Below, in pieces: positions 2,039-23,970 of a DNA stretch of 64,000 nt (its first letter is position 1; every line of letters begins with the position of its first letter). The notes under the pieces were generated by a model that was given only the letters and a program-made list of their open reading frames with translations, ran no database searches and was not told the DNA's origin. The stretch lies in NCBI GenBank assembly GCA_034416335.1, contig DAOULV010000023.1:768-64767 (forward strand), given 5' to 3'. Source of the DNA: Dehalococcoidales bacterium (GTDB taxonomy: Bacteria > Chloroflexota > Dehalococcoidia > Dehalococcoidales > UBA2162). A program made the translations under genes and the position numbers.

Positions 2039-5000
2039 ATGAGTGATGAAGCTAAACAATTCAATAGCTACATTAGTTCTCTTCAAAAGGAATTAGCTAC
2101 AGGAAACACAACCGAGCATACTCATAGGCCCGCTTTTAAAACTTTAGTAGAGTCTCTTGATAAGGGAGTAACCGCAACAAACGAACCAGGCAGAATTAAA
2201 TGCGGCGCTCCCGATTTTGTTGTTACGAAAGGAGCCCTCACCATCGGTTATATCGAGGCTAAGGACATCGGTAAAAGTCTGGATGAAGCCGAGAAAACTG
2301 AGCAGTTAACCAGATACCGTGAATCTCTCAATAACCTAATTTTGACCAATTACCTGGAATTCAGATGGTACGTGGATGGTGACCTCCGGCTAGTCGCTAA
2401 TCTGGGAACTCCTGCGAAAGACGGAAAGATAAAACGCAGCAAGACAGGAGCCGAAGACGTCCATGAGCTAATAAGCGGATTTCTAGTAAACAAGGCAGAG
2501 GCTATCGGCACGCCGAAAGACCTAGCCATCCGGATGGCACACCTGGCACATATGATACGCAACCTGATTATCAATGCCTTTGAGAATGAGGAGGAGACCG
2601 GCGGTTTACATACTCAACTAGAGGCTTTCCGGGATAACTTAATTCCTGACCTATCTGTAGAGTATTTTGCGGATATGTATGCCCAGACCATAGCCTATGG
2701 GTTGTTCGCAGCCCGTTGTACATCCAACAATGGTACGTCTTTCACTCGACTTGATGCCGCTCAGAACCTACCGAAGACAAATCCTTTCCTGAGAAAGCTA
2801 TTTCAATACATAGCCGGCTACGACCTTGATGACCGCATTGCCTGGCTGGTGGATGACCTGGCACAGGTGCTGGCACAAGCGGATATGGAAGCCGTGCTCA
2901 AGGGCTTCGGCAAGCACACAGGTAAAGAAGACCCGGTAGTGCATTTCTACGAAACTTTCCTGAAAGAGTACGACCCTAAGATACGGGAAATGCGTGGCGT
3001 CTACTACACGCCGGAACCGGTAGTATCTTATATCGTGCGTTCCATCGATCATCTGTTGAAAACAAGGTTCAATAAACCGCAGGGGTTGGCTGATGAAAAG
3101 ACGCTGATTCTTGATCCCGCGGTGGGTACTGCCACATTCCTCTATACGGTGATTAACGAAATCTATCAGGCTAACACTGCAAAAGGACAGCAAGGTCTGT
3201 GGAATAATTACGTGGCGGAAAAACTCCTGCCGCGTATCTTCGGATTCGAACTGCTAATGGCACCTTATGCCGTAGCGCATCTGAAGCTGGGGCTTCTACT
3301 TCAAGATACAGGCTACGAGTTTAAGAGCGACCAGCGGCTTGGTGTTTACCTGACGAATACACTGGACGAAGCGATAAAACACTCCGAAGCACTCTTCGCA
3401 CAATGGATAAGCGAAGAAGCCAACGCTGCAGCCAGGATAAAGAAAGATGAACCTATTATGGTTGTGCTAGGTAATCCTCCCTATTCAAAACAGTCAGCAA
3501 ATAAAGGGAAATGGATTACAGAACTAATTAATGGTGTTATTGATAAAGATGGACATGAAATGAGTAAAGGATATAAAACTGTTGATGGTAAACCTATTAA
3601 AGAGAAGAATCCAAAATGGCTTCACGATGACTATGTGAAATTTATACGTTTTGGTCAATGGCGTATTGAACTTACAGGCCAAGGAATCCTCGGACTAATA
3701 ACCAATCATGGTTATCTAGATAACCCGACATTCCGTGGTATGCGGCAATCGCTAATAGAGACGTTTACTGATGTGTATATCCTGAACTTGCATGGTAATA
3801 CAAGGAAAAGAGAGGTTACTCCAGATGGCAGCAAGGATGAGAATGTTTTTGATATTCAACAAGGAGTAGCTATAACGTTATTCATTAAAGAAAGAGATGA
3901 AACTAAATCAGCAAAAGTTCATTATATGGATTTCTGGGGAATACGTGAAAAAAAGTACGCTGCTTTATATGAAGCTAGTATCGATACTCTCGAATGGAAG
4001 GAAATAGAACCGCACAGCCCTTATTATTTATTCTTGCCGACACATGAAACAGAGCTAGAGGAATATAACACTGGATGGAAACTTAATGAGATATTCCCTG
4101 CAAATAACGCGGGTTTTTATACATCGAGAGATAATTTAGTTATAGATTACGATAAAGAAGCACTACAAAATAGAATAATGAATTTTCTTGAAAATACTCT
4201 CAGTGATGATGAAATCCGAGAACGATATCAGGTAGTGGAAAAAGATGATTGGAAAATAAATACTACTCGTAAAATTATCCGCAAGGAAAAACATATTTCT
4301 AAGTTTTTTAAAAGGTGTCTTTACCGTCCTTTTGATACAAGGAATATATACTATCATAAAGCCCTGATACAAAGGCCACGATTTGAAATAATGAATCACA
4401 TGATTAGTGGTAATAACATTGGACTTATTTCTGCAAGAAGTAACAAAACATCCGAAATGACTCAGTTTTTTTGTTCATCTAATATAACTGAACTAAAGTG
4501 TGGTGAATATTCCATAGGATCTTACTTGTTCCCGCTTTACCTCTATCCAGTCGAAGGTGAGATGCAGTTTGATGGCGGCAAGCGACGTTCTAACCTTAAT
4601 CCAGAGTTTATAAAGGACGCGTCTGATAAGCTGAGACTAGAGTTTATCGAGGACGGAAGAGGAGACCTGGAGGAAACATTCGGACCGGAGGATATATTCA
4701 ACTATGCCTATGCCGTCTTCCACTCACCAACATACCGGACACGCTACGCCGAATTCCTCAAGATAGACTTCCCTCGCCTACCGCTAACCTCGGATAAGCA
4801 GCTTTTCAAGGCATTAGCAGAGAAAGGCGCCGAACTAGTGTCACTCCATCTCATGGAGTCACCCGCGTTGAATAATCTTATTACCAGTTATCCTGTAGCC
4901 GGTCCCAACGAAATGAAAAAGGTAACCTATGATGACAATAGCCAGCGTGTCTACATCAACAAAACGCAGTACTTTAAGGGTGTTCCGCCTGAAGTCTGGG

Positions 5001-5173
5001 CATTTCATGTAGGCGGGTACCAGGTATGCCAGAAATGGCTAAAAGACCGCAAAGGCAGAACACTCACCTACGATGAATTAACTCATTACCAGAAAATAGT
5101 CGTAGCGCTCAACGAAACTATTCGGTTGATGGCAGAGATAGACAAGTTGATACTGGAGTGGCCGTTAATGTAG
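2039..5173 (+). CDS. type IIG/ISP-like N6-adenine DNA methyltransferase with an N-terminal PD-(D/E)xK-like motif (no helicase)
   Basis: ORF track 1044 aa. Motif I is LDPAVGTATF and motif IV is NPPY (nt 3473-3484). The N-terminus has APD (2210-2215)...IEAK (2255-2263). The C-terminal YAYAVFHSPTYRTRYAEFLKIDFPRLP resembles the type ISP/IIG C-terminal domain. Confidence 0.8.
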   Translation: MSDEAKQFNSYISSLQKELATGNTTEHTHRPAFKTLVESLDKGVTATNEPGRIKCGAPDFVVTKGALTIGYIEAKDIGKSLDEAEKTEQLTRYRESLNNLILTNYLEFRWYVDGDLRLVANLGTPAKDGKIKRSKTGAEDVHELISGFLVNKAEAIGTPKDLAIRMAHLAHMIRNLIINAFENEEETGGLHTQLEAFRDNLIPDLSVEYFADMYAQTIAYGLFAARCTSNNGTSFTRLDAAQNLPKTNPFLRKLFQYIAGYDLDDRIAWLVDDLAQVLAQADMEAVLKGFGKHTGKEDPVVHFYETFLKEYDPKIREMRGVYYTPEPVVSYIVRSIDHLLKTRFNKPQGLADEKTLILDPAVGTATFLYTVINEIYQANTAKGQQGLWNNYVAEKLLPRIFGFELLMAPYAVAHLKLGLLLQDTGYEFKSDQRLGVYLTNTLDEAIKHSEALFAQWISEEANAAARIKKDEPIMVVLGNPPYSKQSANKGKWITELINGVIDKDGHEMSKGYKTVDGKPIKEKNPKWLHDDYVKFIRFGQWRIELTGQGILGLITNHGYLDNPTFRGMRQSLIETFTDVYILNLHGNTRKREVTPDGSKDENVFDIQQGVAITLFIKERDETKSAKVHYMDFWGIREKKYAALYEASIDTLEWKEIEPHSPYYLFLPTHETELEEYNTGWKLNEIFPANNAGFYTSRDNLVIDYDKEALQNRIMNFLENTLSDDEIRERYQVVEKDDWKINTTRKIIRKEKHISKFFKRCLYRPFDTRNIYYHKALIQRPRFEIMNHMISGNNIGLISARSNKTSEMTQFFCSSNITELKCGEYSIGSYLFPLYLYPVEGEMQFDGGKRRSNLNPEFIKDASDKLRLEFIEDGRGDLEETFGPEDIFNYAYAVFHSPTYRTRYAEFLKIDFPRLPLTSDKQLFKALAEKGAELVSLHLMESPALNNLITSYPVAGPNEMKKVTYDDNSQRVYINKTQYFKGVPPEVWAFHVGGYQVCQKWLKDRKGRTLTYDELTHYQKIVVALNETIRLMAEIDKLILEWPLM

Positions 5174-5322
5174 GTATAAATAGGAAATCAATGATTTTTA
5201 TATTACGAAGTTACCTATCAAAGCGGATTTCGGATAATGTCTTTGTTTTAGTATAAAACCTGTTAATTCTCCAAGCTATAGCTTGATTACTAGTTAAGGT
5301 CTAGCATAGTAATCTAAAAACC

Positions 5323-5351
5323 TTGACGTTTGTTGAACATAACATTATAAT
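5323..5351 (+). promoter_or_regulatory. sigma70-like promoter of the six-gene operon
   Basis: TTGACG (5323-5328), 17-nt spacer, TATAAT (5346-5351), in the 213-nt gap after the MTase. Confidence 0.55.
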
Positions 5352-5386
5352 CGAATACTTCACATATGTGGGGGGAGGTAAATAAT

Positions 5387-6286
5387 ATGCCAAACTACAT
5401 TAGAGATTTGTTTCTATATGTACCTGAGCCAGTATTAAGAAATTTATGCAAAGAGCATGGAATAAAGACTTCGGGATTAAAAAAACTGCAACTTGCCGAG
5501 CAGTTAGTAAAAGGGATTGAAACCCAAGAGTATGAGTCTATACTAGATCAACATCGTTATGCCGGAAGGGGAAGCGTGGTTTGGTTTAGACCTACTCGAA
5601 ATGGAGATACTTTCACAATATCCGATACAGAATTGCGAAACCATATACGTAACTATTGTAATGGTGATCCTTTTGAGAACGACCTTACACCAGAGCTTGA
5701 CCGGCATCCGAAAATAATAAGCTCTAGATTCCTCCATAATGATAAAATAATTATTTTAATGGCTCATATTGAGTTGTGGCCTCGAATTGTTGGCTTTGAA
5801 GTACAGGAAACGGAAGAGACGGTATTTTCTAGATTAATCATTCGACAAGGGTCTTTGTTTTTCGAGGCACGCGCTAGTCAATATAAAGCCGTTCTTATGG
5901 CAGAAGATATTGCGGCAGCACTGGATTGTACAGATATAGGTCAGATAACTCTCGGAGATGATGGTATGAATACTCTAATAGATCGACTGGGTGCATCGAC
6001 TATTGCAGCAAAACATAAACATAATTCAGGCGATTATGATACCACCGAAGTAGTTGTTAATCCTCAAATCGGAGATCTGAGAGACTCTTCACAATATTCC
6101 AATGAACTAAGCGGTCTAGAAGGACGTAGGAAACGAGTTTCTTTTGATTGCACTTTCGGTTCTGAGGTGGTAGCCGTAAGAGCGGAGCTTTATCCAAGAA
6201 CTGGGAATATAGTTTTTCGGTCATATGTAGATGAGAGGGTGTTAGATTATGTATTTGAAACAGTTAGACAAATTAAGGGATTATAA
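5387..6286 (+). CDS. hypothetical protein with an N-terminal SAP-like motif
   Basis: GGAGG 5374-5378 plus ATG 5387 is preferred over ATG 5366. LRNLCKEHGIKTSGLKKLQLAEQLV resembles a SAP DNA-binding motif. The rest is unassigned. Confidence 0.5.
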   Translation: MPNYIRDLFLYVPEPVLRNLCKEHGIKTSGLKKLQLAEQLVKGIETQEYESILDQHRYAGRGSVVWFRPTRNGDTFTISDTELRNHIRNYCNGDPFENDLTPELDRHPKIISSRFLHNDKIIILMAHIELWPRIVGFEVQETEETVFSRLIIRQGSLFFEARASQYKAVLMAEDIAAALDCTDIGQITLGDDGMNTLIDRLGASTIAAKHKHNSGDYDTTEVVVNPQIGDLRDSSQYSNELSGLEGRRKRVSFDCTFGSEVVAVRAELYPRTGNIVFRSYVDERVLDYVFETVRQIKGL

Positions 6287-6638
6287 CATTGCACAAGAGA
6301 CCATAGCTAAGCTAGATGAATATCTAAATAGCATCGCTGAAGAAGGAACAAAACGTTTCAGCCCCAATCACATGGCCGAACGGACTGGGCTTGACATTCA
6401 AATTTCTCAAACGATACTTCTCCGAACAGCTCAAATAGGAACAATTCAAACTTACTATGAAATAGAATGTCCTGAAGGTGATAGTGATTTTTTTGTTACG
6501 AGAATAGAAGATGTTGATTGGAATACTGAATGTGTATGTAGAGTGTGTGGCACAGAATATATACCAAATCCTTCTAATATTTGGGTGACGTTTAGTATTT
6601 TAGACCCTCCTTCCCCAAAAGCATTATGCCGCCTGTAA
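6249..6638 (+). CDS. hypothetical wHTH-like / Zn-ribbon-like protein
   Basis: ORF track 129 aa with a GAGGGTG SD before ATG 6249 and a 38-nt overlap with the upstream gene. It has an HTH-like SPNHMAERTGLDIQISQTILLRTAQ and a Cys cluster ECPEG...CVCRVCG. Confidence 0.45.
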   Translation: MYLKQLDKLRDYNIAQETIAKLDEYLNSIAEEGTKRFSPNHMAERTGLDIQISQTILLRTAQIGTIQTYYEIECPEGDSDFFVTRIEDVDWNTECVCRVCGTEYIPNPSNIWVTFSILDPPSPKALCRL

Positions 6639-7240
6639 GTGGTACTCACAAATCAGGTGGCAGCCTACAAGAACTAACTAAAAGACCAGAGTGGATAGAT
6701 TTCATCCCATCTCAGTTGGTGGCACTTGATAGAGATAAATACTCAGAATTACTAGGACGAGTTGAAGAATCACTCCTTTCAGGAACCAATAAAGAAAAAG
6801 GAGATAGTCTAGAAGAACTCGCTGATTTTCTATTAAGCTCAATCAAAGCATTTATTGTCGGGCAAAAAACCAACACATCAACCGGAGAGCTGGATAGATT
6901 CTTGAAAATAAGTAAGATTCCCGGGACATTTTTATGCGACTGGTCATTGTATATTCCCGTAGAATGTAAAAATTGGAATGATCCTGTGGGTGGGGATATT
7001 ATTGACCATCTTTATGCCAAAGCAAGGAATATGGATGCAAATCGAGGAATTTTATTTTCTCGTGAAGGTGTTACAGGCAATATGAGTCATGATGGTTGGA
7101 GACAAATCGTAAACTTATTTCAAAATTCCCGTTATATAACCATTGTTGTGGACATTGATGACCTAAGAAGTATCAACGCTGGAACTTGTCCATTGCATAT
7201 AATAGAGCAATGCCAGGAAAAAGTAATATTAAGCGCATGA
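6626..7240 (+). CDS. Mrr-like restriction endonuclease-domain protein
   Basis: ORF track 204 aa. GDSLEELADFLL...ELDRFL...YIPVECKNW...GILFSREGVT follows the Mrr_cat PD-(D/E)xK layout (D...ExK). It overlaps the upstream gene by 13 nt. Confidence 0.6.
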   Translation: MPPVSGTHKSGGSLQELTKRPEWIDFIPSQLVALDRDKYSELLGRVEESLLSGTNKEKGDSLEELADFLLSSIKAFIVGQKTNTSTGELDRFLKISKIPGTFLCDWSLYIPVECKNWNDPVGGDIIDHLYAKARNMDANRGILFSREGVTGNMSHDGWRQIVNLFQNSRYITIVVDIDDLRSINAGTCPLHIIEQCQEKVILSA

Positions 7241-7283
7241 ATAAGTACTATTTCAAACCTTTCAATTCGGTAATGAGTTATAG

Positions 7284-8192
7284 ATGATGAACGAACTTAA
7301 CAGCTCACATTTAAATATAATCGACACCATTAAGCTCAGGGGAAGAGAATTTACAGATGATGAGTTGAGCACTATTCGTGAAAGTGTGATAAATAACTTT
7401 GACAAAGGTCGTACTTATATATCAAGAGATATTTGTAATACCCTCAATTGGAAACAACCAAATGGTTGGCTAAAAGATAGAGCATGCCGTGACGTGTTAC
7501 TTGAATTAGAAAAAAGAGAAATAATCAAACTTCCACCTCCTTTGGTAGTTAAGAACAACAAAAAATCTAACAAAGGCAATAGTATAAGTTATTTGAAAAA
7601 TTTTGATCTGAATACACCTATATCCGAATTCCCAAATTCTATTGAACTAGAATTTGCAAAAGGTAATATTCAAGAGAAAGTCTGGAATGAACTGGTCAAT
7701 CAATATCATTATTTGGGACATAGCACTACTGTTGGTAGGTGCATTAAGTATCTGATTAGATCTAACGACAGGTTACTAGGGGCACTCTCATTTTCATCTC
7801 CGGCATGGGAACTGGAGACTAGGAATAATATCCTTAACTCAATAGGTATTGAAAATCCAAGAGATTACACAATAAATAATTCTAGATTTCTCATTTTACC
7901 TATAGTGCAAGTAAATAATCTTGCATCACATGTGTTAGCTATAGCAGCAAAAAAGATTGTTAACGATTGGAAGGACTATTATTCCATAATTCCTCTGATT
8001 GCTGAAACTTTCGTTCAACCATCTCGATTCGATGGCACCTGCTATAAGGCAGCCAACTGGATAGAAATTGGTACAACAAAAGGTTATGCTAAAAGAGGAA
8101 GATTTTATCGAAACAGTCAGGAACCCAAGAAGATATTTTTGTATGGTTTAGATAAAAGAATACGAACAAAGTTGCTACAATTAGAGAAATAG
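7284..8192 (+). CDS. DUF4338-domain protein (DruA-like)
   Basis: ORF track 302 aa. QYHYLGHSTTVGRCIKYLIRSNDRLLGALSFSSPAW and ETFVQPSRFDGTCYKAANWIEIGTTKGY match my memory of the DUF4338 signature. Confidence 0.65.
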   Translation: MMNELNSSHLNIIDTIKLRGREFTDDELSTIRESVINNFDKGRTYISRDICNTLNWKQPNGWLKDRACRDVLLELEKREIIKLPPPLVVKNNKKSNKGNSISYLKNFDLNTPISEFPNSIELEFAKGNIQEKVWNELVNQYHYLGHSTTVGRCIKYLIRSNDRLLGALSFSSPAWELETRNNILNSIGIENPRDYTINNSRFLILPIVQVNNLASHVLAIAAKKIVNDWKDYYSIIPLIAETFVQPSRFDGTCYKAANWIEIGTTKGYAKRGRFYRNSQEPKKIFLYGLDKRIRTKLLQLEK

Positions 8193-8200
8193 GCATTATA

Positions 8201-9256
8201 ATGAATGCACGAGATACCTTAAAGAATGCGCGAGAATTTATTCGTAAACAAGGCGGGCAAATTGCACCGCTCCCTATAACTGAAGAGGAATTGGATCCTT
8301 CAGCTCAAGATGATCAGTCACTTGAAACTTTTTCCTTAGAACCTACAAATTGCCAGAATGTTGAGTATTCATATCCAGATGACTGTGGAAACAGCGAATT
8401 CTCCTTTTTTGAAGATGGTAAACAGAGAACTCTACATATAGGATTTATAGAAACCGAATATGGAGATCATACTGCTATAATTCCGGTACATTTTGTAGTT
8501 GTTGCCGCAGTAATCTTACAACGGCAAGAGCGTGAATTAAGCCTTTGGGATCAGCCAGTGATCCGAAGTGGAATATTGGTCGAAAAGTCACTTGTTCCGA
8601 ATACACATGCTCTTAATGAATTTGAAAATCTCGGATTAGAAATAATCGATACAGAAGGTCTTGGAGGAGACTACTACGTATTGAGGAATAAAGCTTTACA
8701 AAAAGCAAAATCTATGAGATTAGAAGTCGAGGATGAATTAATACGTCGATGGCGTACAAGCGATGATGCCCAAAACGGCTTTTTAATAGTAGATGGGACG
8801 TTGATGAATTTTCGCGACGAGGAGAATGTTAGGCATTGTATTGGTGTCAGTAAATCATTCGGTACTAGATATTTCACCACAAGTGAGCACAATCGTATAT
8901 TACAAATGCAAGAATTTCAAAGATCTTGGACATTTCGTTTCCACCATCCTGGAGATGCACTAAATTTGGGAGTACGTGACCGAGTAAGTTGGTACCTAAG
9001 ACTTAGAACTAAAACTAACGCCGATCCTGAGTTTGGTCTTATCCGAGTAGAGATAAGTCACTCTTATCATAACCAGGCAACCGATTATGCTAATCGATTC
9101 TCTAAATCATTAATATCAGAAAGGCTACCTACTTCCTATCCGGATAGTCGGTGGGATAAACTTTTATATCCTATTCAAGAGTGTGAGAGTTATTTGTCAA
9201 GTGTAATACCTTCAATTCAAACCATCGCTTCCAGTATGAAAGGAGCGCTGTCATGA
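8201..9256 (+). CDS. NurA-like nuclease
   Basis: ORF track 351 aa. NurA-type motifs are FEDGKQR, RLEVEDE, FLIVDGTL and GVSKSF. It sits directly upstream of, and overlaps, a HerA-like ATPase. Confidence 0.55.
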   Translation: MNARDTLKNAREFIRKQGGQIAPLPITEEELDPSAQDDQSLETFSLEPTNCQNVEYSYPDDCGNSEFSFFEDGKQRTLHIGFIETEYGDHTAIIPVHFVVVAAVILQRQERELSLWDQPVIRSGILVEKSLVPNTHALNEFENLGLEIIDTEGLGGDYYVLRNKALQKAKSMRLEVEDELIRRWRTSDDAQNGFLIVDGTLMNFRDEENVRHCIGVSKSFGTRYFTTSEHNRILQMQEFQRSWTFRFHHPGDALNLGVRDRVSWYLRLRTKTNADPEFGLIRVEISHSYHNQATDYANRFSKSLISERLPTSYPDSRWDKLLYPIQECESYLSSVIPSIQTIASSMKGALS

Positions 9257-11052
9257 CATATCAGTCGGTACCACAGGAAGAATCGCCTGAAATGCAAAAT
9301 GAAGAGTTTAGCCTAAGTAATTTTCTGAATATTAGCTACGGAGTCATTGGTAGAACTGCATCGACGAGATTTGAACCCAACACTTCCGGTAAATTCCACT
9401 TTTGGTTATCGAAACTTGCGCCTAATCTTCCAGCTGATGATGATCATGAAGTTCCTACTCCTAACGAAACTCAAGAAGTTGGTAGAGACCGGGAAGAAGT
9501 GGCGCCAATAGAAATAGGAAATATCGTGGCTGCATATTCAGATGATGAGGTAGATATTACATTTGGTACAGTAACAGAAATGAGATCATATAGCGATGTG
9601 GAGAGTTTCATTTCTGATTATTTAAGTCATGATTTTGGCGATGCCACTATTCAAGTTCCGACTGATATTACTGAAGTAATTGTTGTCACTTGTGCTGTAA
9701 TGCGTAATATATCACTTAAGACCAAGCCCGTGGGGAGATCTCGAGTATATTTCCCGAGTACATTAGGGATTCAATTTTCCTACGGAATCGTTGATGAAAA
9801 TGGTGAAATAACCTTTAGAGGTGCGCCTATACCCTTTGGAGTATTTGAAAACGGTGATGGCACTATTGCTCCAATCAGTGTAGACGAAAATTTCTTACTC
9901 GGACCGGAAGGCGCTCATCTTAATGTTTCTGGTATTTCAGGCTTAGCATCAAAAACTTCAGCAATTGAATTTACGATCAACTCTCTTCTCACTCACACTC
10001 GTAAGAGACTGGCTGTAGTGATGTTCAATGTTAAAAGTCAAGATTTACTTTACATCGATCAGGTGAATCCGAGACTCGCGGAGGAAGAATGGTCACAATG
10101 GGCATATGACATTTTAGGTGTACCTCAAGAACCATTTGCTAATGCAAGTTTCTATGCACCTGCAGATCCTAGAAATGCACCAGATGGGACACAGAGTTCC
10201 AGAAGTCTTGAAGTACAGCCCTTCGAATGGAATTTACCTATGATTTATCAGCAAATTCCAACTCTATTTGACCAGATGGATTGGGATGATAGGATGGAAG
10301 GAGTCTGGTTTACAATACAGGGCGATATAGAAAGTGGCCAAATTTTATCTTACGGGCAAATGGTTAATTCGGTTCAAAATCTTATCAATACAGCAACAAA
10401 TAATCAGCGACAATGGGTAAGAGGCAACCATATTTCTACTTGGCAAAAAATGTTATCACACTTAAGGCGATTTCCACAATCTTATCAAGGATTGATAACA
10501 CCTGCTGGTACGGGTAGGGACATACCATGGAATGAGTTACAGGAAAATAGTGTTTGGATCATCGACATTGAAATGCTCGCTGATCGAGGTCAAAGGCTGG
10601 TATTTGGTCGTTCAGTGTATGCTATTAGCGAGATGTTAGAATCTGATGATAGCAACCTAGACGCAGTTGTAGTATTTGTTGACGAATTAAACAAATTTGC
10701 TCCTTCAGGAAATGTTAGAACTCCACTGAAATCTAGGTTAATTGATATCACAGCAAGAGGACGAAGCATAGGAATGGTTCTTTTCGGTGCGGAACAATTT
10801 GTTTCATCAGTAGACAGAGAAATCGTCGAAAATAGTTCAACGTATCTATTCGGACACACTGAAACAAATGAACTACGTAGCCCTACATTTAGTGCGTTGA
10901 GTGATGAAGTAAAAACAAAATTGACGATGCTTCCTCAAGGACAACTGTTAATTAAATTTGCAAAATTCCCACAGCCAATATTCTTGAAATTCCCATTTCC
11001 CGCATGTTGTCCTGGTGATCAATATAGTTCAGAAGACGTGGGAGATCAGTAG
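9253..11052 (+). CDS. HerA/FtsK-superfamily (DUF87-like) ATPase
   Basis: ORF track 599 aa with an ATGA overlap with the NurA-like gene. It has a HAS-barrel-like N-terminus, a deviant Walker A SGISGLASKTS (nt 9931-9960), a Walker B VVVFVDE (nt 10665-10686) and ARGRSIGMVLFGAEQ. Confidence 0.65.
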   Translation: MTYQSVPQEESPEMQNEEFSLSNFLNISYGVIGRTASTRFEPNTSGKFHFWLSKLAPNLPADDDHEVPTPNETQEVGRDREEVAPIEIGNIVAAYSDDEVDITFGTVTEMRSYSDVESFISDYLSHDFGDATIQVPTDITEVIVVTCAVMRNISLKTKPVGRSRVYFPSTLGIQFSYGIVDENGEITFRGAPIPFGVFENGDGTIAPISVDENFLLGPEGAHLNVSGISGLASKTSAIEFTINSLLTHTRKRLAVVMFNVKSQDLLYIDQVNPRLAEEEWSQWAYDILGVPQEPFANASFYAPADPRNAPDGTQSSRSLEVQPFEWNLPMIYQQIPTLFDQMDWDDRMEGVWFTIQGDIESGQILSYGQMVNSVQNLINTATNNQRQWVRGNHISTWQKMLSHLRRFPQSYQGLITPAGTGRDIPWNELQENSVWIIDIEMLADRGQRLVFGRSVYAISEMLESDDSNLDAVVVFVDELNKFAPSGNVRTPLKSRLIDITARGRSIGMVLFGAEQFVSSVDREIVENSSTYLFGHTETNELRSPTFSALSDEVKTKLTMLPQGQLLIKFAKFPQPIFLKFPFPACCPGDQYSSEDVGDQ

Positions 11053-11147
11053 AGCACAATATTGTCTCTAGCATTGTCATTAATCGCAGTGTTATTTACT
11101 GCTAATGCAGTATATTGTACTGCAAAAATATACAAGTTGATACACGA

Positions 11148-11972
11148 TTAAGGGAGGACCTTCTTCAGATACTCCTGCCAGTATCCTTCATCATCACCTA
11201 CTATCTCATGAAGCCAGCAATACATCATCAATATCTCGAATTCTTGTTTCCTGCCTTTTGTGAAAGCTTTTTTGGGCATTTTCGTATACAGTGAGTTGAT
11301 ATTAAACAGGTTCGTACCTTTCTTGAAATCGTATTCATACTTCATCCAAGGATCTTGTGTCGTTAATTTATGAGTGGATGGCCAGAGGTCCTTATTGTCC
11401 CAAAAATAATTCACCCAATTCTCTGCGAACGTCATAACGTTCACTCGATATTTCATCCATGTCTTATTAATCCAGTCATTGATGTCTTCAGAGAAAAAAG
11501 GTGACTCTGATCTCCAGGCTTGCTGACTCTGTATTCGATGATATTCTTTTATAAACAGGAACAGCATTTCGGTCTGGTCTCTGAGGAAAGGATACTTCTT
11601 AATCAACTTAGAATAACAGTCGTATGATAAGCTTCTGAATTCTTGGTCTGTGTTGAAGAGAAAGAAGAACACATTTTGATCTAGAATGAAACCAATAGCT
11701 CTATTAACATAGCTCCCATGGTCAGTGTTTATCCCAACAAGCCAATCCTGGATTTCTGGATCGTATTCCCGTAGCTGTTTTCGGTACTTTTCTATCTTCT
11801 CATTTTGTAATACGGTTTTATTCTCTGCAACCGTAATATTCAGGTAGTTATTAAAATATTCGAAAACATAGTTAACACATATCCGTAGATTTTCCGTTCG
11901 AGTATCGGCATCAAATTCATCAATCTTATCTTCTTTCTTACGGCGAATAATATAGTCTTCAAGTCTTAACAT
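11148..11972 (-). CDS. hypothetical Trp/Tyr-rich protein
   Basis: ORF track 274 aa with an AAGGAGA SD before ATG 11972. No family was recognised. Confidence 0.5.
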   Translation of the reverse strand: MLRLEDYIIRRKKEDKIDEFDADTRTENLRICVNYVFEYFNNYLNITVAENKTVLQNEKIEKYRKQLREYDPEIQDWLVGINTDHGSYVNRAIGFILDQNVFFFLFNTDQEFRSLSYDCYSKLIKKYPFLRDQTEMLFLFIKEYHRIQSQQAWRSESPFFSEDINDWINKTWMKYRVNVMTFAENWVNYFWDNKDLWPSTHKLTTQDPWMKYEYDFKKGTNLFNINSLYTKMPKKAFTKGRKQEFEILMMYCWLHEIVGDDEGYWQEYLKKVLP

Positions 11973-12150
11973 GTCATCTCCTTGATAATGTTACTTCAAC
12001 AAAATCTTTTCTATTTCCAAGGTAGATGTCAAGACTTACAGAATAGCATCTTTATGGAATAATGGAATAGCAAAAGGCGACGAATCAGCCGGTCATGAAG
12101 AATCGGCAGGCATTGATGATGAAGACAAAAATTGCGGTAAGAATTTCGTA

Positions 12151-12179
12151 TTGACTTCTGTTTTAGCCTCAATTATAAT
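12151..12179 (+). promoter_or_regulatory. near-consensus sigma70-like promoter with no ORF downstream
   Basis: TTGACT (12151-12156), 17-nt spacer, TATAAT (12174-12179). AGGAGG at 12191-12196 is not followed by a start codon. Confidence 0.4.
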
Positions 12180-12242
12180 CCAAAACAGAAAGGAGGCAAG
12201 CGGTCGGTTCAGCAAGCGACTGGTTGCTTTTCTGCCGAGAAG

Positions 12243-12285
12243 CTCTTAATCAGCCGGTTGGAGGTTCGAGTCCTCCGCGGCTCAG
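12243..12285 (+). repeat. tRNA-Lys(CUU) 3'-half fragment, att-like direct repeat copy 1
   Basis: Anticodon loop CTCTTAA, stem TCAGC, variable CGGTT, T-arm GGAGG-TTCGAGT-CCTCC, acceptor GCGGCTC plus A. No matching 5' half (GAGCCGC) lies upstream. It matches 16412-16454 at 42 of 43 positions. Confidence 0.75.
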
Positions 12286-12327
12286 ACTCAATTCCTAGAA
12301 TCGATTTTTGGAATTTTTCATATTCTT

Positions 12328-12480
12328 TCAGTTTCTCAAATCTTCGTATATATCCTTGAAGTTTTCTTTCAATTCATCCGGAGATGTGCCCTGACTTCTA
12401 TAGTCGGGATATTCTTCTAGCCAGCCCACCCACATGCCATTCTCATGGTAGTAAATAAACTCAAGAGTTTCCATTTTCAT
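12328..12480 (-). CDS. small HicB/UPF0150-like protein (about 50 aa)
   Basis: Internal ATG 12480 of ORF 12328..12621. METLEFIYYHENGMWVGWLEEYPDYRSQGTSPDELKENFKDIYEDL resembles the HicB N-terminal fold. No HicA partner was seen. Confidence 0.4.
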   Translation of the reverse strand: MKMETLEFIYYHENGMWVGWLEEYPDYRSQGTSPDELKENFKDIYEDLRN

Positions 12481-12583
12481 CCTACCCGCTTGTAAAATCC
12501 AATCATTTGAAATTATATCAGAATTTCTATAATAAAAAATATGTTCTGTCAAAAGCAAATACAAAGAATGGGGGAAGATTAAT

Positions 12584-12985
12584 CTATTTCTTTCTGTCAG
12601 ACTTTCTAGGTTTTGATTCAAAGAATTTAATCACCTTCTCTCGCAGGTATCGTTCGGCAAATGAATTAACGGTGCCGTCAGGATATATTATTCTGTTGCC
12701 GATAAGAGGTTTCATTTTATTCTCTAATGCCACCTCAGAAAGAGAAGTCCCGAGTTTATCCTTGAGTTCTTTTAAACTGTAAGTAGTATTTTGCCAGAGT
12801 CATTCCCATAATTTATTTACCGATTCACCGGGAGAGCCTTTGATTTTACTGATACGCCTTATATCCAGGCTAGTCCATGCAACGATGATTTTTACCAGCT
12901 CTGGATTGTCATCGAGTAACAGCACAATCTCAGGCTTTTCATTCTGTTTGAACCAGTCCAACTTTTCGGTATATAGATTGTCCAT
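12584..12985 (-). pseudogene. paralogue of the 22150..22521 small protein, interrupted by an in-frame TGA
   Basis: It aligns end to end with the 127-aa ORF (DNLYTEKLDWFKQNEKPEIVL... and ...NRIIYPDGTVNSFAERYLRE). TGA 12800-12802 sits where the paralogue has Trp. ATG 12985 lies 4 nt after the ParB-like stop. Confidence 0.6.
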
Positions 12986-12989
12986 TGAA

Positions 12990-13637
12990 CTATACCCGGT
13001 ACCGAATATATGGGTAATTTTCAAGATAGAAACGTGCTAAGTGCGTGAGTGCATGGCTGCGTGATGGTTCTTCTTTTATTCTAGATATCAAATCCAGGGC
13101 GAGGTTTATTTCTCTGGCTTCAGATTCTTCTACCATAAAAGTAAAGCTGACGGGAATAGTGAACTTACCTCCTTCAGAAGTGTTTGATATGATTTCGTCT
13201 GCCTCAAGGTGTGATAGGCGTTTTAATTCCTCAATCTGTTTATTGTTATCTGGAAGAAGTGCCGTCAGTTCATCAGCTTCGTAGGATTTAAAAAGGTTTT
13301 CTAAAAGTATTGCTCTTCGCTCGGGGACTTCTTTACCAGACAGTCGATTAAGGGTTGCCAGATAAAGTCTTGTCTGAGAATCGTCAAGTTTCCAGACCAG
13401 GCAGTTTATTGTTCGATAACTAAGAGCGCGAAGTACACGTAAACGATTATGCCCATTGATAATCTGAAACTTACCTCTTTCGCTAGGATGCAGACGAACC
13501 GTCAACGGTTCATACCTGCCACTCCGCTCTATATGACGCCTTAGTTTACGGGCTGTTTCCGCATTCATAAAGTTACTGTTTTCTGGATGTTCGACCAATA
13601 ATTCAATAGGGATTTCCTGTATTTTTATATTATCCAT
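12990..13637 (-). CDS. ParB/Srx N-terminal-domain protein (ParB-like nuclease domain)
   Basis: ORF track 12990..13724. ATG 13637 is preferred because it avoids a 77-nt overlap. IPIELLVEHPENSN...YEPLTVR...FQIINGHNRLRVLRAL is the ParB-N pattern. Confidence 0.65.
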   Translation of the reverse strand: MDNIKIQEIPIELLVEHPENSNFMNAETARKLRRHIERSGRYEPLTVRLHPSERGKFQIINGHNRLRVLRALSYRTINCLVWKLDDSQTRLYLATLNRLSGKEVPERRAILLENLFKSYEADELTALLPDNNKQIEELKRLSHLEADEIISNTSEGGKFTIPVSFTFMVEESEAREINLALDLISRIKEEPSRSHALTHLARFYLENYPYIRYRV

Positions 13638-13647
13638 TTTATCTATT

Positions 13648-14595
13648 CTATTCGAATAAGTTTCCCTGAGAAGGAATCTCAGTGGAATTCGACCAGTGTC
13701 CGACAATATTACAGCTTCCGCCAATATCCGGGTTCATGCAGCCACAAACTGAGATCTCTATACCGTATATACCAGCGATTCTCTTTACATTCTCGTATAT
13801 TTCATTCCGCGTAGAGGGAGGTAGAGGGACGATAGAAGAATGAGGAGAAAGAACAGGCATACGCCCGGATAAATAGTGACTCATTATACGTTTGGTTATC
13901 GAACTGTCGTTTATATATTTTTGCAGGTTTCGAGCAATCATCGGACGTAGAAATAGTGTGCTTATTGCCGCTTTTTTTATGCCCGTATTAGCTAAAGTCT
14001 CTAATAGACTATTCATGGATACCTCAGTATCGGTAATTCCTGGTATTATGGGTATTATCCTAGCCTCAACTTGTATACCTGCATTGACCAGAGCTTCTAT
14101 TTGCTTGAGACGTACACTTACAGAAGCAGCATTGGGCTCAAAGATGCGTCTTACCGAATCATCTGCGGTGATTGTGCCTATCTGGACTCTGACGATATGA
14201 GCATGTTCTCGCAAAAGACCTAGAGTTTTCTCCGGTATTTTCCCCTTGGTTAAAAAAGCCACCCCAATATCTTTGGCAAGCAATAGATTTAAAACACGGT
14301 GACTTAGTTCCAGCACGTTCTCTAGAGGTTGAAAAAGGTCACTCGAGGGGCTGAAATACACTGCCTGCGGTAATTTCCTTTTTAATGAGAGTTCTTTTTC
14401 CAATTTTTCCAGGATGTTAACGTATAAAGAAACTTTGTTGTCGCCTGGATATACGGAGTATCCGCGAGCGTAGCAATAGAGACAACTATGAGCACATCCC
14501 AGGGTTAAATTAACTGTCGGAATATTAGACAGGCAGGAGAGACTGGATGGAGTGAGAATTGCAGATTTTCTTTCTGTATATTTCAACACTACCAT
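13648..14595 (-). CDS. radical SAM protein, COG1533 / SplB-like ('DNA repair photolyase') family
   Basis: ORF track 315 aa. The CxxxCxxC cluster GCAHSCLYCYARG lies near the N-terminus. Size and layout are typical of COG1533. Confidence 0.75.
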   Translation of the reverse strand: MVVLKYTERKSAILTPSSLSCLSNIPTVNLTLGCAHSCLYCYARGYSVYPGDNKVSLYVNILEKLEKELSLKRKLPQAVYFSPSSDLFQPLENVLELSHRVLNLLLAKDIGVAFLTKGKIPEKTLGLLREHAHIVRVQIGTITADDSVRRIFEPNAASVSVRLKQIEALVNAGIQVEARIIPIIPGITDTEVSMNSLLETLANTGIKKAAISTLFLRPMIARNLQKYINDSSITKRIMSHYLSGRMPVLSPHSSIVPLPPSTRNEIYENVKRIAGIYGIEISVCGCMNPDIGGSCNIVGHWSNSTEIPSQGNLFE

Positions 14596-16208
14596 ATGTA
14601 TTCACCTTTAAGATTCAGGTAATGCTCTTTAGACTTGTGTGAAAATATGTAAGCAAAGTTACCTCTAAGTTTTAAGGTTTTGGTCATATCACAGACCATA
14701 ATGTCATTAAGCGAAAAAGCAGTCATGTGATCGATGAGTTCACGAGAAGTCAGATCCATATCGATGATAATCGTGTAATCACAAACAGTCATGAGGCAAT
14801 CAATAATACTTCTCCCGTCTGTAGTTACCAGACATTCGGGGTTGAATTTCCGTGCGGGAAGTACGAAATCCTGGTTCTTTATATCTCCACATACTTTAGA
14901 ATCTAACAATGTCATGCTCTTATAGAACCGGGTAAGTGATACAAGAGAGTATATTTTTTCGTTCGTTCTATACTTACTTGAATTCGAAATTGCCAGATTG
15001 TCTACTCCCCCTCCGGTTGGAGACAGACTGTTTTCAGGAAGGACCGATTCGATGTTAGATGTAGGAAATAAATCTTTGAGCATCTCTGTTAACTTTTCAG
15101 AATCTAAATTTACAAAGAAGAAATTACCGCAGGTATCTAGCACTTTCGAGATCAAAGCAATTCTTATCCCGTCGGTTTTAGTTGACGGAAGTACCCGACT
15201 TAACCAATTCCTGTAGTCATCGCCAGTATATTCCAGACTACCAATTTACGCTTGCATATTATCTTGAAGAAAGAATCTGGCAGGATTAGGAGGTTCCAGA
15301 TCAACAGATCGCAGTCGGAATCTCGGTGTGAATCCGAATTGTCCTCCCAATTTCTGGATTTTACGGCAAAGTGTGGCAACAAGGCTGCTGCTTCCAGCTC
15401 CTATATCTAAAAACTCTATAGTAATATCATCATTGAAATATTTGTGCTCGGATTGGATTACAGGTTTAACAATACCCTGAAATATTTGTCTTCCTCGTTC
15501 GGCGGTCCATGGGTCGGTTGCATATTTAATACTATCTACAAATTTATTTAGTAGTTGGAAACTTTTCCCCCGCTTTTCTATAGACACTGCAGGATAGAAG
15601 AAGAGTGACATCGGAGAATCCTTAGATAGTGAATACTGCCTGTAATGAAAAAATAATTCCGGTTTCTTATCTCCATTAACTGTAATCACAGGAAGAAAAC
15701 GGGAGTCGTCTAAAGAGTTAGGAAACTTCAGTTTAGCTAAGAGATAGCAAGGATTCCGCGTTGTACAGATTCCGGCAGCGAGTATCTCAGCGTCGGAATC
15801 TGTTAAGATTATTCCGAAGCATTCGAAACCTAAAACCGCCCTAAGTGCGCTTAACCATGATTGAGTAGCGCAGGTTTCCGAATAATTTGATAGAAAAGTG
15901 TTGAGTAAAGAAAAGTAATGGTAACAGAAATCTTTCATTAATGAGGAACTAAATCCACAGTGAATATAATTTCTCCAAACAAAATGAAGCTTGTAAAGAT
16001 TATCCTCTAATTCCTTGTGTTTAAGTTCATACAATGGCTGCCAGTATGCATTCCAATCCTTTGTTTCTAAAATAAACCTTCCACTATTAAAAACCTTAAC
16101 ACTGGTAAGGATAGTATCTTTCTCCAGGACTGACAAAAGTAGTCCCCTATTACGGACTCTTATAAGATTATTTAGCGGTATCGCTGCTGTTTTCATTTCC
16201 GATTCCAA
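14589..16208 (-). pseudogene. about 539-codon class I SAM-methyltransferase-like gene interrupted by a single in-frame TAA
   Basis: ORFs 15246..16208 and 14589..15155 share one frame and are separated only by TAA 15246-15248, with 30 sense codons bridging them. Motif I IEFLDIGAGSS and RSVDLEP lie just before the stop. The 3' end overlaps the rSAM start (ATGGTAG). Confidence 0.55.
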
Positions 16209-16230
16209 AATATATCATATGTGTATGCAA

Positions 16231-16279
16231 AGAACAAGTGTTCTATTGGCATAATAACACTATATAATTTTTAAGACAA
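16231..16279 (-). promoter_or_regulatory. promoter plus LexA/SOS-box-like operator of the islet operon
   Basis: On the minus strand: TTGTCT (16279-16274), 17 nt, TATTAT (16256-16251), then the palindrome AGAACAAGTGTTCT (16231-16244, GAAC-N4-GTTC) 22 nt upstream of ATG 16208. Confidence 0.45.
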
Positions 16280-16411
16280 TGGTATTTTGACGTGATTATC
16301 GTGTGACGTTGAGTAAAGAAAAGCAGATTCGTTTTTTAACAAACCTGCTTTAACAAGATACGTACGTTCTTTATATCGATAAATATGATTCTTTTTATCC
16401 GGGAAAATCAC

Positions 16412-16454
16412 CTCTTAATCAGACGGTTGGAGGTTCGAGTCCTCCGCGGCTCAG
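16412..16454 (+). repeat. tRNA-Lys(CUU) 3'-half fragment, att-like direct repeat copy 2
   Basis: Same 43-nt sequence as 12243-12285 with one mismatch, in the anticodon stem. No 5' half lies upstream. Confidence 0.75.
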
Positions 16455-16496: not shown

Positions 16497-16949
16497 TCAG
16501 GTAACATTCCCTATAAACGGGTTCTCGGCGCGTTTCTCTATTTGTAGACAAATCGATGTTTCGATTCTGATAATCCCGTCTATCTTACCTATCTCACTTT
16601 CCAGCAAGTTGTAAAGTTCTTCGGTCGAACTAACCCACCAGACGGTCCTGACATTAAACAGTCCACTTGTTGCACCTACCCAGGCAGCATTCGGATATTT
16701 ACTCAGCGCCTTCAGGACCGATTTTATTTTTTCGTGAGAAACCTCAAGTGAAATGAACGCCACGACGGGTAACCCGACTTTTTCAAGGTTTGGGACCGCT
16801 CTGATGTGTATTATCCCCTGCTCAAGCAGGTTTTTCATTCTGCGTCTTATCGTGGAAGAGCTGGTGTTTAGTTGCTTGGCTAGTGAGGTACTGTTGACAT
16901 TAGCGTCGTGCATCAGTAGTTCTATTATTTGAGTATCCAGTAAATCCAT
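16497..16949 (-). CDS. Lrp/AsnC-family transcriptional regulator
   Basis: ORF track 16497..16976. ATG 16949 has a GAGAGG SD. There is an HTH (TSLAKQLNTSSSTIRRRMKNLLEQGII) plus a C-terminal RAM-like domain. Confidence 0.8.
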   Translation of the reverse strand: MDLLDTQIIELLMHDANVNSTSLAKQLNTSSSTIRRRMKNLLEQGIIHIRAVPNLEKVGLPVVAFISLEVSHEKIKSVLKALSKYPNAAWVGATSGLFNVRTVWWVSSTEELYNLLESEIGKIDGIIRIETSICLQIEKRAENPFIGNVT

Positions 16950-17132
16950 TGTAATACCTCTCAGGCAATTTAGCACAATATTTACGATTATACAAGCAAT
17001 ATAGTCAAATTACCTGACAATCCATCAATTATAAATCATGCCTGCGCGACATATGGGAACCCGACATCGAAAGCATTATTAGACCGGACCCAATTATATG
17101 TGTATAACCGGGGTCCTGTAGATATGCCGGGA

Positions 17133-22149: not shown

Positions 22150-22521
22150 TCAAACAATCTTACTACCCTGTTCCCGAAGGTATTTTTCGACGAACGAATT
22201 CAATGTGCCGTCAGGATAAATGACCCGGTTACTCATGAGAGGCTTAATCTTACTCTCCAGAGCTGCCACAGAGAGAGAAGTTCCGACTTTCTCCTTAAGG
22301 TCTTTTAAATCATACTCGGTATTTTCCCATAACCATACCCAGGACTCGACCTCTGATTCACCAGGAGTACCTTTGAGTCTCTTTACAGGCTTAGTATCCA
22401 GACTTGTCCAAGCAATCGATATCTTTATCAGGTCTGGCTCATCTTTGAGAAATAAAACGATTTCCGGCTTCTCATTCTGTTTGAACCAGTTCAGTTTCTC
22501 AGTGTATAAATCTTCAGTCAT
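22150..22521 (-). CDS. conserved small protein of unknown function (paralogue of 12584..12985)
   Basis: ORF track 22150..22533. ATG 22521 is chosen by homology. An alternative GTG 22533 abuts the rSAM stop. Confidence 0.55.
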   Translation of the reverse strand: MTEDLYTEKLNWFKQNEKPEIVLFLKDEPDLIKISIAWTSLDTKPVKRLKGTPGESEVESWVWLWENTEYDLKDLKEKVGTSLSVAALESKIKPLMSNRVIYPDGTLNSFVEKYLREQGSKIV

Positions 22522-22533
22522 TTCCTGATACAC

Positions 22534-23757
22534 TTATAATACGCAATTACATAGACCCAGGTTTTTCTCAATTCCCAATTTTGACCATAGCTGATGTTCC
22601 TCCAGACAGAGTGCAACCTCAAGGTCAGGACATATTTTTCGTGCCGCCTGGATAATAGTGGAGTATATCCTTTCTCTCAATTCTGGAGAATATCGGGCTC
22701 TACCATCCCCCGATTTTCTCAAAGTATTGTTAATATGATCCGATATGGAGTTATGCAAGCCTAACTTATGCTCCATAAGTTTACGCGCACCTTGATAAAT
22801 ACATATACCACCAAGAGTAAGTCGCTGAACGGGAATCTCTTTTAGGAGTCGAACCGTAAATGCAGTATATTTTTCTTCCCATCCATCAACAGGAATAACA
22901 GGCATCATAACTACACGGACCGGGTAACCGGCAGAAGCCACACTACGCATGGCTTCAAGGCGTTCCTCTATTCCAGGAACATTCTCTTCGTACATTTCAC
23001 ATACTTCGGGTGGGTTAACACTCCAGGACAGAATCGTGTTCCCATGGTGTTTAGTATCCAATAATCTATTAACGTTGGTACTTTTAGTTAAGAGTATCAA
23101 TCGAGCCTGGGGATGTTCCGCAAAAAAAGGAACCAAGATACTTGAATAAGCCGTCAGGGAATCAAGAGCTAAAGGGTCTTGGAGCTTGCCGATATAAAAT
23201 GGAGTGGGTTTTCCTATATTACAAGCGGTATTGTTTATTGTATTAATCATCTCTGGAAGGTTTACGTATATCTTAACTGTAGGAGAAAATCTGACGCCCT
23301 GAGTCCCAGCGAGGTAACAGTATTTGCAACCGAACGGGCAAAAACCATACGGAGAAAAATGCCAGTAGTTCGGGCAGGTATTCCCTTCTTCCCGGCTAAA
23401 CCGGACGGCGCTCTTAAGTTCTCCGAAAACAAGTGTCTTTTTACCTGCCTGATGTAAAGCAAGAGTTTCTCTCTCATCCAGAATTATCCGGTTATGAGGG
23501 GTGTCAGGACATTTTACTGTTTCAGTTCCTGGATAAAGGCTGCATATGCGTTCTACAAATCTGTGGCGTTCCGGTGTAGAGACGCTTCCCCTGGCCAGAA
23601 AAATCCTAGATATTTCCAGGTGTTCAGGACGAGTCGGCTGATAATCAATCGGTAGACCGATTCTTTGTTGCGTATTATCAAACAAACCAAGTTGTCTAGA
23701 TTTTCCACCCATCCGTTTCCTCATTATTAACTGGTAATATGAATCGCTTTCTTTCAA
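22534..23757 (-). CDS. radical SAM protein, spore-photoproduct-lyase (SPL)-like family
   Basis: ORF track 407 aa. Motifs are FCPFGCKYCYLAG (CxxxCxxC), LILLTKS and ILSWSVNPPEV...AGYPVRVVMMPVIP. Confidence 0.75.
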   Translation of the reverse strand: MKESDSYYQLIMRKRMGGKSRQLGLFDNTQQRIGLPIDYQPTRPEHLEISRIFLARGSVSTPERHRFVERICSLYPGTETVKCPDTPHNRIILDERETLALHQAGKKTLVFGELKSAVRFSREEGNTCPNYWHFSPYGFCPFGCKYCYLAGTQGVRFSPTVKIYVNLPEMINTINNTACNIGKPTPFYIGKLQDPLALDSLTAYSSILVPFFAEHPQARLILLTKSTNVNRLLDTKHHGNTILSWSVNPPEVCEMYEENVPGIEERLEAMRSVASAGYPVRVVMMPVIPVDGWEEKYTAFTVRLLKEIPVQRLTLGGICIYQGARKLMEHKLGLHNSISDHINNTLRKSGDGRARYSPELRERIYSTIIQAARKICPDLEVALCLEEHQLWSKLGIEKNLGLCNCVL

Positions 23758-23838
23758 CGAATTTTATATCCACCACAGGTAACCGCCTTATAGGAACAGT
23801 TTACTCTCACTGAAATTTAATGGTATTACATTTATATA

Positions 23839-23852
23839 CGAACATATGTACT
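23839..23852. promoter_or_regulatory. LexA/SOS-box-like palindrome (imperfect)
   Basis: CGAACATATGTACT has a GAAC-N4-GTAC core with one core mismatch. It lies 82 nt upstream of the rSAM ATG 23757, next to a TATATAAAT -10-like element on the minus strand. Confidence 0.3.
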
Positions 23853-23897
23853 ACTTACTGATTTTATCATCAGAACGCTAGAGGAGCAAGACTATTG

Positions 23898-23906
23898 TGC
23901 TATAAT
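23898..23906 (+). promoter_or_regulatory. extended -10 element upstream of aor
   Basis: TGcTATAAT lies 65 nt upstream of ATG 23971. No good -35 was seen. Confidence 0.35.
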
Positions 23907-23970
23907 AGTGCCGGTTTTATCAGGACTACCACAATGAAGGAATTACATCCAGTGCCGAAAGGAGAGAACA

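Follow-up and report, generated by a model that had tools for sequence, protein, structure and literature searches.

A 14-bp palindrome overlapping the promoter of a four-gene cassette, in the 64,000-nt stretch of Dehalococcoidales DNA analysed here (the window), appears from comparative sequence evidence to be a real and evolutionarily conserved repressor site, LexA/SOS-box-like in form. It is probably a LexA operator that blocks the start of cassette transcription. This reading draws on the geometry of the site, its phylogenetic footprint, the specificity of the motif, the behavior of sites kept out of training, its identity under a matrix of known LexA sites, the Dehalococcoidales host, the linkage of lexA to the cassette elsewhere, and the precedent of SOS control for related enzymes; from it we infer that the host LexA binds the box and that DNA damage induces the cassette. 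The switch is of a well-known kind; the cassette under its control is previously undescribed.

The box, its promoter and the genes behind it

The sequence AGAACAAGTGTTCT at 16231-16244 is a perfect 6+6 palindrome, AGAACA-AG-TGTTCT, with a 2-nt centre. An earlier note on this DNA had put it 6 nt past the -10 of a minus-strand TTGTCT-17-TATTAT promoter, and a consensus scan bears this out (16279 to 16251, with TG before the -10). Because the box starts 6 nt after the -10 hexamer, the transcription start must be covered by it. The start codon given in the same note, an ATG at 16208 lying 22 nt from the box, has to be corrected: the codon at 16208 is TTG, and the start on record is the ATG at 16196, 34 nt beyond the box. 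The features of the cassette and its immediate surroundings are:

16251-16279, minus strand: sigma-70-type promoter, with -35 TTGTCT (16279-16274), a 17-nt spacer and a TG-extended -10 TATTAT (16256-16251); from the consensus scan, and aligning with the conserved cTTG...TATAAT of orthologous promoters
16231-16244, minus strand: operator, candidate LexA-type box, AGAACACTTGTTCT on the gene strand; palindromic, present in ~36 homologous loci, rank 2 in the window under the LexA matrix
14589-16196, minus strand: gene 1, of a ~536-codon family with a GxGxG Rossmann-like motif; in-frame TAA at 15246-15248 (codon 317)
13648-14595, minus strand: radical SAM enzyme, 315 aa; closest families PA0069 and Rv2578c radical-SAM, both below cut-offs, with a weak SPL match
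12990-13724, minus strand: ParB N-terminal-domain protein, ParB_N being the only domain detected
12584-13024, minus strand: frameshifted remnant of the fourth gene (orf127 family), consisting of orf74 (12800-13024) and a 49-aa ORF (12584-12733)
12243-12285, plus strand: left direct repeat of the islet
16412-16454, plus strand: right direct repeat of the islet, a tRNA 3'-half-like fragment 98% identical to 12243-12285

The core GAAC-N4-GTTC has a single occurrence in the window where 1.13 would be expected by chance, and AGNACANNTGTTCT with up to one mismatch gives three strand-matches against 0.78 expected, a count equalled in 8 of 100 shuffles. Neither pattern beats chance within the window, so the evidence for the box has to come from other loci. 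A 16-nt direct repeat, GTTGAGTAAAGAAAAG, occurs in two exact copies, one inside gene 1 (15900-15915) and the other (16308-16323) in a terminator-like hairpin region upstream of the cassette promoter.

The usual order of the cassette elsewhere is gene 1, radical SAM enzyme, ParB_N protein, orf127. The window operator is intact; gene 1 has a nonsense codon, and the islet orf127 has suffered a frameshift. The cassette in the islet is decaying, though its promoter and operator stay intact. Gene 1 matches no Pfam, NCBIfam or PHROG family and, the one in-frame TAA aside, runs collinear with its homologues; its recorded product (P0001) is 316 aa long and starts at ATG 16196. Single in-frame codons stop gene 1 in eight independent loci (the window, L016, L019/L036, L039, L041, L044, L073 and L102), at different codon positions and with all three stop codons, and three further copies are frameshifted, which suggests that a costly gene has been inactivated repeatedly; the alternative, that the in-frame stop is recoded, was rejected on the strength of this variety in the kind and position of stops at other loci. 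The radical SAM enzyme scores 104.8 bits against the PA0069 family (cut-off 360), 99.5 against the Rv2578c family (cut-off 430) and 22.6 against Pfam SPL (cut-off 27). No helix-turn-helix family was detected in the ParB_N protein. The orf127 family, named for the 127-aa gene that follows an SPL-family gene elsewhere in the window (22150-23757) and of which the islet orf74 (74 aa) is a truncated paralogue, is strongly conserved over its C-terminal half and carries a lysine-rich tail; it has no Pfam, NCBIfam, PHROG or PDB-profile match, and its single-sequence AlphaFold model (pLDDT 42.7) is too poor for a fold search.

The four genes lie on the minus strand of an islet of ~4 kb (12286-16411), bounded by 43-nt direct repeats resembling a tRNA 3' half. 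No intact tRNA was found in the window by ARAGORN, and no Rfam family matches were found there. Analogous repeats containing the 3' part of a tRNA or tmRNA are present in L003 (1953/5837), L006 (5720/9711), L049 (7639/11720) and L016 (5730/9305); the spacing of repeats around the cassette is 3.6-4.2 kb, and the genes adjoining the cassette include tRNAs of many kinds (Met, Asn, Leu, Asp, Lys, Pro, Ala) and tmRNA. No gene in the cassette has a family match to an integrase, transposase, recombinase or phage gene. One contig from the same sample (L002, Logan SRR14802572_6759, 4197 bp) consists of the islet on its own, with the 43-nt repeat at both ends; it may either reflect a break of the assembly graph at the repeat or represent a circular or excised molecule. 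The assignment of the window to Dehalococcoidales agrees with its single-chain PurL, which falls in a 90%-identity cluster whose named members are MAG proteins of Dehalococcoidales or Dehalococcoidia. The region from ~4000 to 16400, which holds defence-type genes, has a G+C content of ~39%, versus ~49% elsewhere in the window. To the left of the islet is a low-GC defence-type island (2039-11972), in which several ORFs have no family match and the following are recognizable:

2039-5173: Type IIG restriction-modification enzyme
7284-8192: DruA-like protein
9253-11052: HerA/mad8-like ATPase

Conservation of the box and its likeness to LexA sites

Scans with the gene-1 alignment returned 29 genome loci and 80 metagenome loci, mostly from Dehalococcoidia or other Chloroflexota and the rest from Planctomycetota. 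In the close class, where gene 1 shares at least ~46% identity with that of the window, the pattern AG[T/C/A]ACA-NN-TGTTCT lies 17-70 nt before the gene-1 start in seven of the eight genome loci and in 28 of the 31 from metagenomes; the eighth genome locus (L004) has a degenerate box. Altogether ~36 close homologous cassettes carry the box at the same place, just past the -10, and these gene-1 promoters, together with four SPL-module promoters outside the window, make up its phylogenetic footprint. An alignment of 18 promoters, with a mean column identity of 39%, shows little conservation outside three blocks: GTGACAAAAnnCnnTTG, with the -35 inside it; TATAAT; and TAGnACAtaTGTTCTT, 5-11 nt after the -10. 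The overlap with the core promoter is accordingly shared, the box beginning 6 nt after the -10 in the window and 5-11 nt after the conserved TATAAT in the orthologues. The encoded proteins are only ~50% identical and the promoter blocks have nevertheless been kept, which neutral DNA would not have done. With the box, the -10 and the -35 region as the only conserved promoter blocks, the geometry of a repressor-occluded start site proposed in the earlier note is supported.

The form of the box varies among the sites. Position 3 is T in 14, C in 12 and A in 6 of the 32 sites (T or C in 26/32 orthologous sites), and its symmetry partner, position 12, is T in 32/32. The commonest form is the asymmetric AGTACA..TGTTCT, unlike the perfect GAAC-N4-GTTC of the window, and the imperfect half-site faces upstream in the scored sites with the sole exception of L046, where it is reversed. 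In the high-GC Chloroflexota class of cassettes the box is absent, though the upstream promoter block is kept, as GTGACACGAACCnCTTCG; these loci instead show AGTGCT-N7-AGCGCT after a TAGGCT -10-like block. Most planctomycete copies of the cassette are also without the box. The conserved GTGACAAAAnnCnnTTG block, at 16262-16290 on the minus strand of the window, which in both types of module takes in the -35 and the stretch just upstream of it, is a possible second regulatory site.

The second of these modules lies further along the window, on the same strand:

23839-23852, minus strand: second box, AGTACATATGTTCG on the gene strand, upstream of the SPL-type module; rank 1 in the window under the LexA matrix
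22150-23712, minus strand: SPL-family radical SAM gene (392-aa product P0220, ATG 23712 to 22534), followed by an intact orf127 copy (22150-22533)

That a related sequence precedes a second SPL-like radical SAM operon had been pointed out before, and it does: CGAACATATGTACT, the forward-strand form of the second box, is upstream of a minus-strand gene whose 407-aa ORF (392-aa product) scores 108.5 bits against Pfam SPL (cut-off 27). The site has one mismatch to the Cheo core and fits the cyanobacterial LexA consensus. The consensus scan finds no sigma-70 consensus promoter there, and a promoter at this site is read only from the 18-promoter alignment. The box is also present at the equivalent SPL-module promoter of four Dehalococcoidia-type relatives (L116, AGAACTTATGTTCT; L118, AGTACATGTGTTCT; L117, AGTACAATTGTTCT; L032, AGAACATCTGTTCA); in L032 it precedes a ParB_N-methyltransferase gene, and then SPL. 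The close relative L116 (Dehalococcoidales CP070800.1) has its SPL module in the same place as the window, beside an AFOR gene, where a fusion of ParB_N to an N6/N4 DNA methyltransferase is followed by SPL and orf127 (8760-11578); the methyltransferase gene has been lost from the window, or was never present there (22150-23970). The earlier description of two paralogous modules with a common site stands as to the shared site; simple paralogy does not, the two being parts of one gene set that lies contiguous elsewhere (L088, L032). Since an SPL-type gene adjoins the cassette in L014, L032, L038, L088 and L091, the two modules are better seen as parts of one recurrent gene set.

The five SPL-module boxes (window, L116, L117, L118, L032) were kept out of the training of a matrix built from 32 sites. 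When ~820 kb of fetched DNA and the window were searched with this matrix, hits of at least 17 bits fell at cassette or SPL-module promoters with two exceptions, L008:8781 and L020:7578. The former, AGAACTTGTGTTCT at 8781-8794 of a Chloroflexi contig, is the only further box outside the modules in the fetched DNA; it is flanked by TTGACT and TAATAA far downstream of the cassette, and no long ORF follows it within the fetched stretch.

The earlier identification of GAAC-N4-GTTC as the core of the Gram-positive-type LexA (Cheo) box holds exactly for 16232-16243, and a matrix of LexA sites agrees. This matrix was made from 48 published cyanobacterial LexA sites (PMC3091678) and run over both strands of the window, whose host is a member of the Dehalococcoidales and no cyanobacterium. 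The best site in the window is the one at 23839 (16.6 bits) and the second is the one at 16231 (14.2 bits); the next best, at rank 3, has 12.2 bits. The orthologue consensus AGTACATATGTTCT scores 19.4 bits, and the median of the 48 training sites is 16.5. It is the conserved position and sequence in orthologous promoters, together with the top two ranks under an independent LexA matrix, that give the box its significance.

Candidate regulators and the possible mobility of the islet

No lexA gene was found in the window, in the Dehalococcoidia loci or in the contexts of SPL homologues. The fetched flanks contained neither recA nor dinB nor ruvB, only a weak partial UvrA-like match (L042:777-2462). 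Linkage to lexA is found in planctomycete-type contigs. Two of them (L088, L017) have the order lexA-gene1-rSAM-ParB_N-...-SPL on the same strand, with the lexA gene (LexA_DNA_bind plus Peptidase_S24) directly before gene 1, and in a third (L113) lexA is followed by a homologue 47% identical to the cassette radical SAM enzyme. L088 additionally has a 2-thiouracil-desulfurase-like (TudS) gene before SPL, at the position of the L116 methyltransferase, and orf127 after SPL. A search seeded with the L088 LexA protein returned only planctomycete-like LexAs among the 120 matches listed. The planctomycete-type lexA promoters themselves share another perfect palindrome, ACCGTC-N4-GACGGT, between -35 and -10 (L088 7304-7319; L112 6932; L113 6945; L114 6945; L115 4727, the last two being the same sequence). 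This palindrome, of which we know of no published description, is a candidate LexA box of the planctomycete lineage; it is absent from the planctomycete gene-1 promoters.

If the box is a LexA operator, a LexA dimer bound to the 14 bp over the transcription start would keep RNA polymerase from initiating. DNA damage would lead to RecA-stimulated self-cleavage of LexA and free the promoter, and the cassette would then be transcribed: gene 1, the PA0069/Rv2578c-like radical SAM enzyme, the ParB_N protein and orf127. The same regulator, sitting on 23839-23852, would hold the SPL-type radical SAM/orf127 module in check, and with one regulator at both loci the two would form a single small damage-inducible regulon. 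For the clade's own LexA, a study by Fernandez de Henestrosa et al. from 2002 is reported to have found that the Dehalococcoides protein binds GAAC-N4-GTTC, and it is from that study that this motif would be assigned to LexA of this clade; the literature searched contained no paper stating a Chloroflexota LexA motif.

In the main rival, which we consider unlikely, the cassette supplies its own repressor, be it orf127 or a ParB_N protein working as KorB does; the box would be the operator through which this repressor autoregulates both modules, and the LexA likeness would be coincidence or mimicry. ParB-family proteins can repress, KorB of RK2 being an example; the box travels with the element rather than with a host locus; and an orf127 gene ends both module types, with one copy per module in L032. 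With its conserved C-terminal half and K-rich tail, orf127 may itself bind DNA, and its low-confidence structure model shows helix-helix-hairpin-helix elements. That model is unusable, however, and neither orf127 nor the ParB_N C-terminus has a helix-turn-helix family, PDB or PHROG match; the combination looked for in a ParB/KorB-type operator, a helix-turn-helix together with co-occurrence with the box, was not found. On the contrary, ~30 high-GC loci keep ParB_N and orf127, the latter with the same conserved C-terminal segment, and have no box. Conversely, L117 has a box but neither a ParB_N gene nor a full-length orf127-sized gene downstream of SPL (a 70-aa product is called there), and L038 has a box and, with no intervening ParB_N, an SPL gene immediately behind the radical SAM gene. 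A cassette-encoded repressor would also leave unexplained why the motif scores like true LexA sites.

Might the box instead be bound by some other global regulator of the host with a similar palindromic preference? The GCAC half-site, frequent among the orthologues, fits neither published LexA consensus, and the extra box at L008:8781 is in an unrelated intergenic region. Against this, we know of no other regulator motif with GAAC/GTAC-N4-GTTC and an RNRY centre, in other phyla lexA and the cassette are physical neighbors, and the enzyme family is a recurrent LexA target. Such a regulator is without positive support and, in our estimation, decidedly improbable. A neighboring Lrp/AsnC gene (16497-16976) was considered as the regulator and rejected: its position is outside the islet repeat, and an informal look at the loci examined showed no such gene beside the cassette.

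That the palindrome is a chance sequence, or a hairpin in the 5'-leader RNA or DNA with no operator function, is very improbable indeed: its core does occur at the chance rate in the window, and the window copy can form a 5-bp hairpin (-5.3 kcal/mol, z = -2.0, a weak fold), but position and sequence are kept in ~36 loci, no compensatory base pairs are seen (position 3 varies and its partner, position 12, is invariant), and folding of the orthologous L003 and L006 boxes gives no structure (0 and -1.3 kcal/mol). The chance or RNA-structure reading is thus contradicted by site variation, promoter alignment and folding alike, and the fixed position 12 opposite a variable position 3, along with the failure of orthologues to fold, argues for selection on sequence, as for a protein-binding site.

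The LexA reading, if confirmed, would add to the SOS regulon of Dehalococcoidia, in which both cultivation and genetic manipulation are difficult. The addition would be a conserved and unannotated cassette comprising two families without known relatives, a radical SAM enzyme and a ParB_N protein, and it would be tied functionally to the SPL-type radical SAM module. A single 14-bp operator would also offer a simple handle on when the cassette genes are expressed.

A further and more speculative idea concerns the islet as a whole: that the cassette is a self-contained mobile islet lacking an integrase, whose own proteins insert it at tRNA and tmRNA 3' ends and whose movement or DNA-modifying activity is damage-inducible through the LexA-type operator. 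Any of the four cassette proteins could be the actor. What prompts this proposal, to which we give little credence as it stands, is the presence of direct repeats, the variety of tRNA targets, the lack of a recognizable recombinase and the recurrent knock-out of gene 1; the islet may instead be mobilized in trans by an ordinary integrase encoded elsewhere. If true, an integrase-less islet of this sort would represent a new mechanism of site-specific integration under SOS control.

Comparison with known systems

The Cheo box, GAAC-N4-GTTC, is the operator core of Gram-positive LexA (PMC2248561; PMC3323433). As found with LexA/DinR of Bacillus subtilis and in other Gram-positives (GAAC-N4-GTTC / CGAACRNRYGTTYC), it has the same 4-4-4 core as the box described here, and an RNRY-type centre (AAGT, ATAT, ACGT) and placement in the core promoter are common to both. 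The differences are in the flanks, A...T here but C...G in the Cheo box; in the upstream half-site, which is GTAC or GCAC in most orthologues; and in the host, a member of the Chloroflexota rather than a Firmicute or Actinobacterium.

The cyanobacterial LexA box is given as RGTACNNNDGTWCB (Mazon et al., 2004, as cited in PMC3091678), and the listed Nostoc sites include those of lexA, AGTACTAATGTTCT, and uvrA, AGTACTATTGTTCT (PMC3091678). Both the commonest orthologous form, AGTACATATGTTCT, and the second site of the window, AGTACATATGTTCG, fit this consensus letter for letter and score like true sites, and AGTACATATGTTCT closely resembles the Nostoc lexA site AGTACTAATGTTCT. The first site of the window differs by its Cheo-type GAAC, and in a third of the orthologues the half-site is GCAC, which fits neither the Cheo nor the cyanobacterial consensus.

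Among the genes known to be under LexA control, the closest parallels are those for SplB-like or COG1533 enzymes (splB; Rv2578c). Rv2578c/Rv2579 is a LexA ChIP-seq site in Mycobacterium tuberculosis (PMC3381160), and splB-like radical SAM genes are described in the literature as LexA-regulated in Alpha- and Betaproteobacteria, Bacteroidetes and Verrucomicrobia. Both modules of the window likewise place a radical SAM enzyme behind a LexA-type box. The islet enzyme differs in falling far below the family cut-offs and in belonging to a four-gene cassette, one that holds two families without known relatives and sits in a repeat-flanked islet.

LexA also controls promoters of mobile elements, among them integron integrases, phage GIL01 and CTX phage (PMC3323433, PMC4551915). 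The islet differs from these in having no recognizable integrase, transposase or phage gene, and its mobility and induction are hypothetical; it resembles them in that the operator lies inside a discrete element, here one with tRNA-derived direct repeats, and travels with it. A small element at tRNA genes with a LexA-type switch of its own would parallel the SOS control of integrons and temperate phages.
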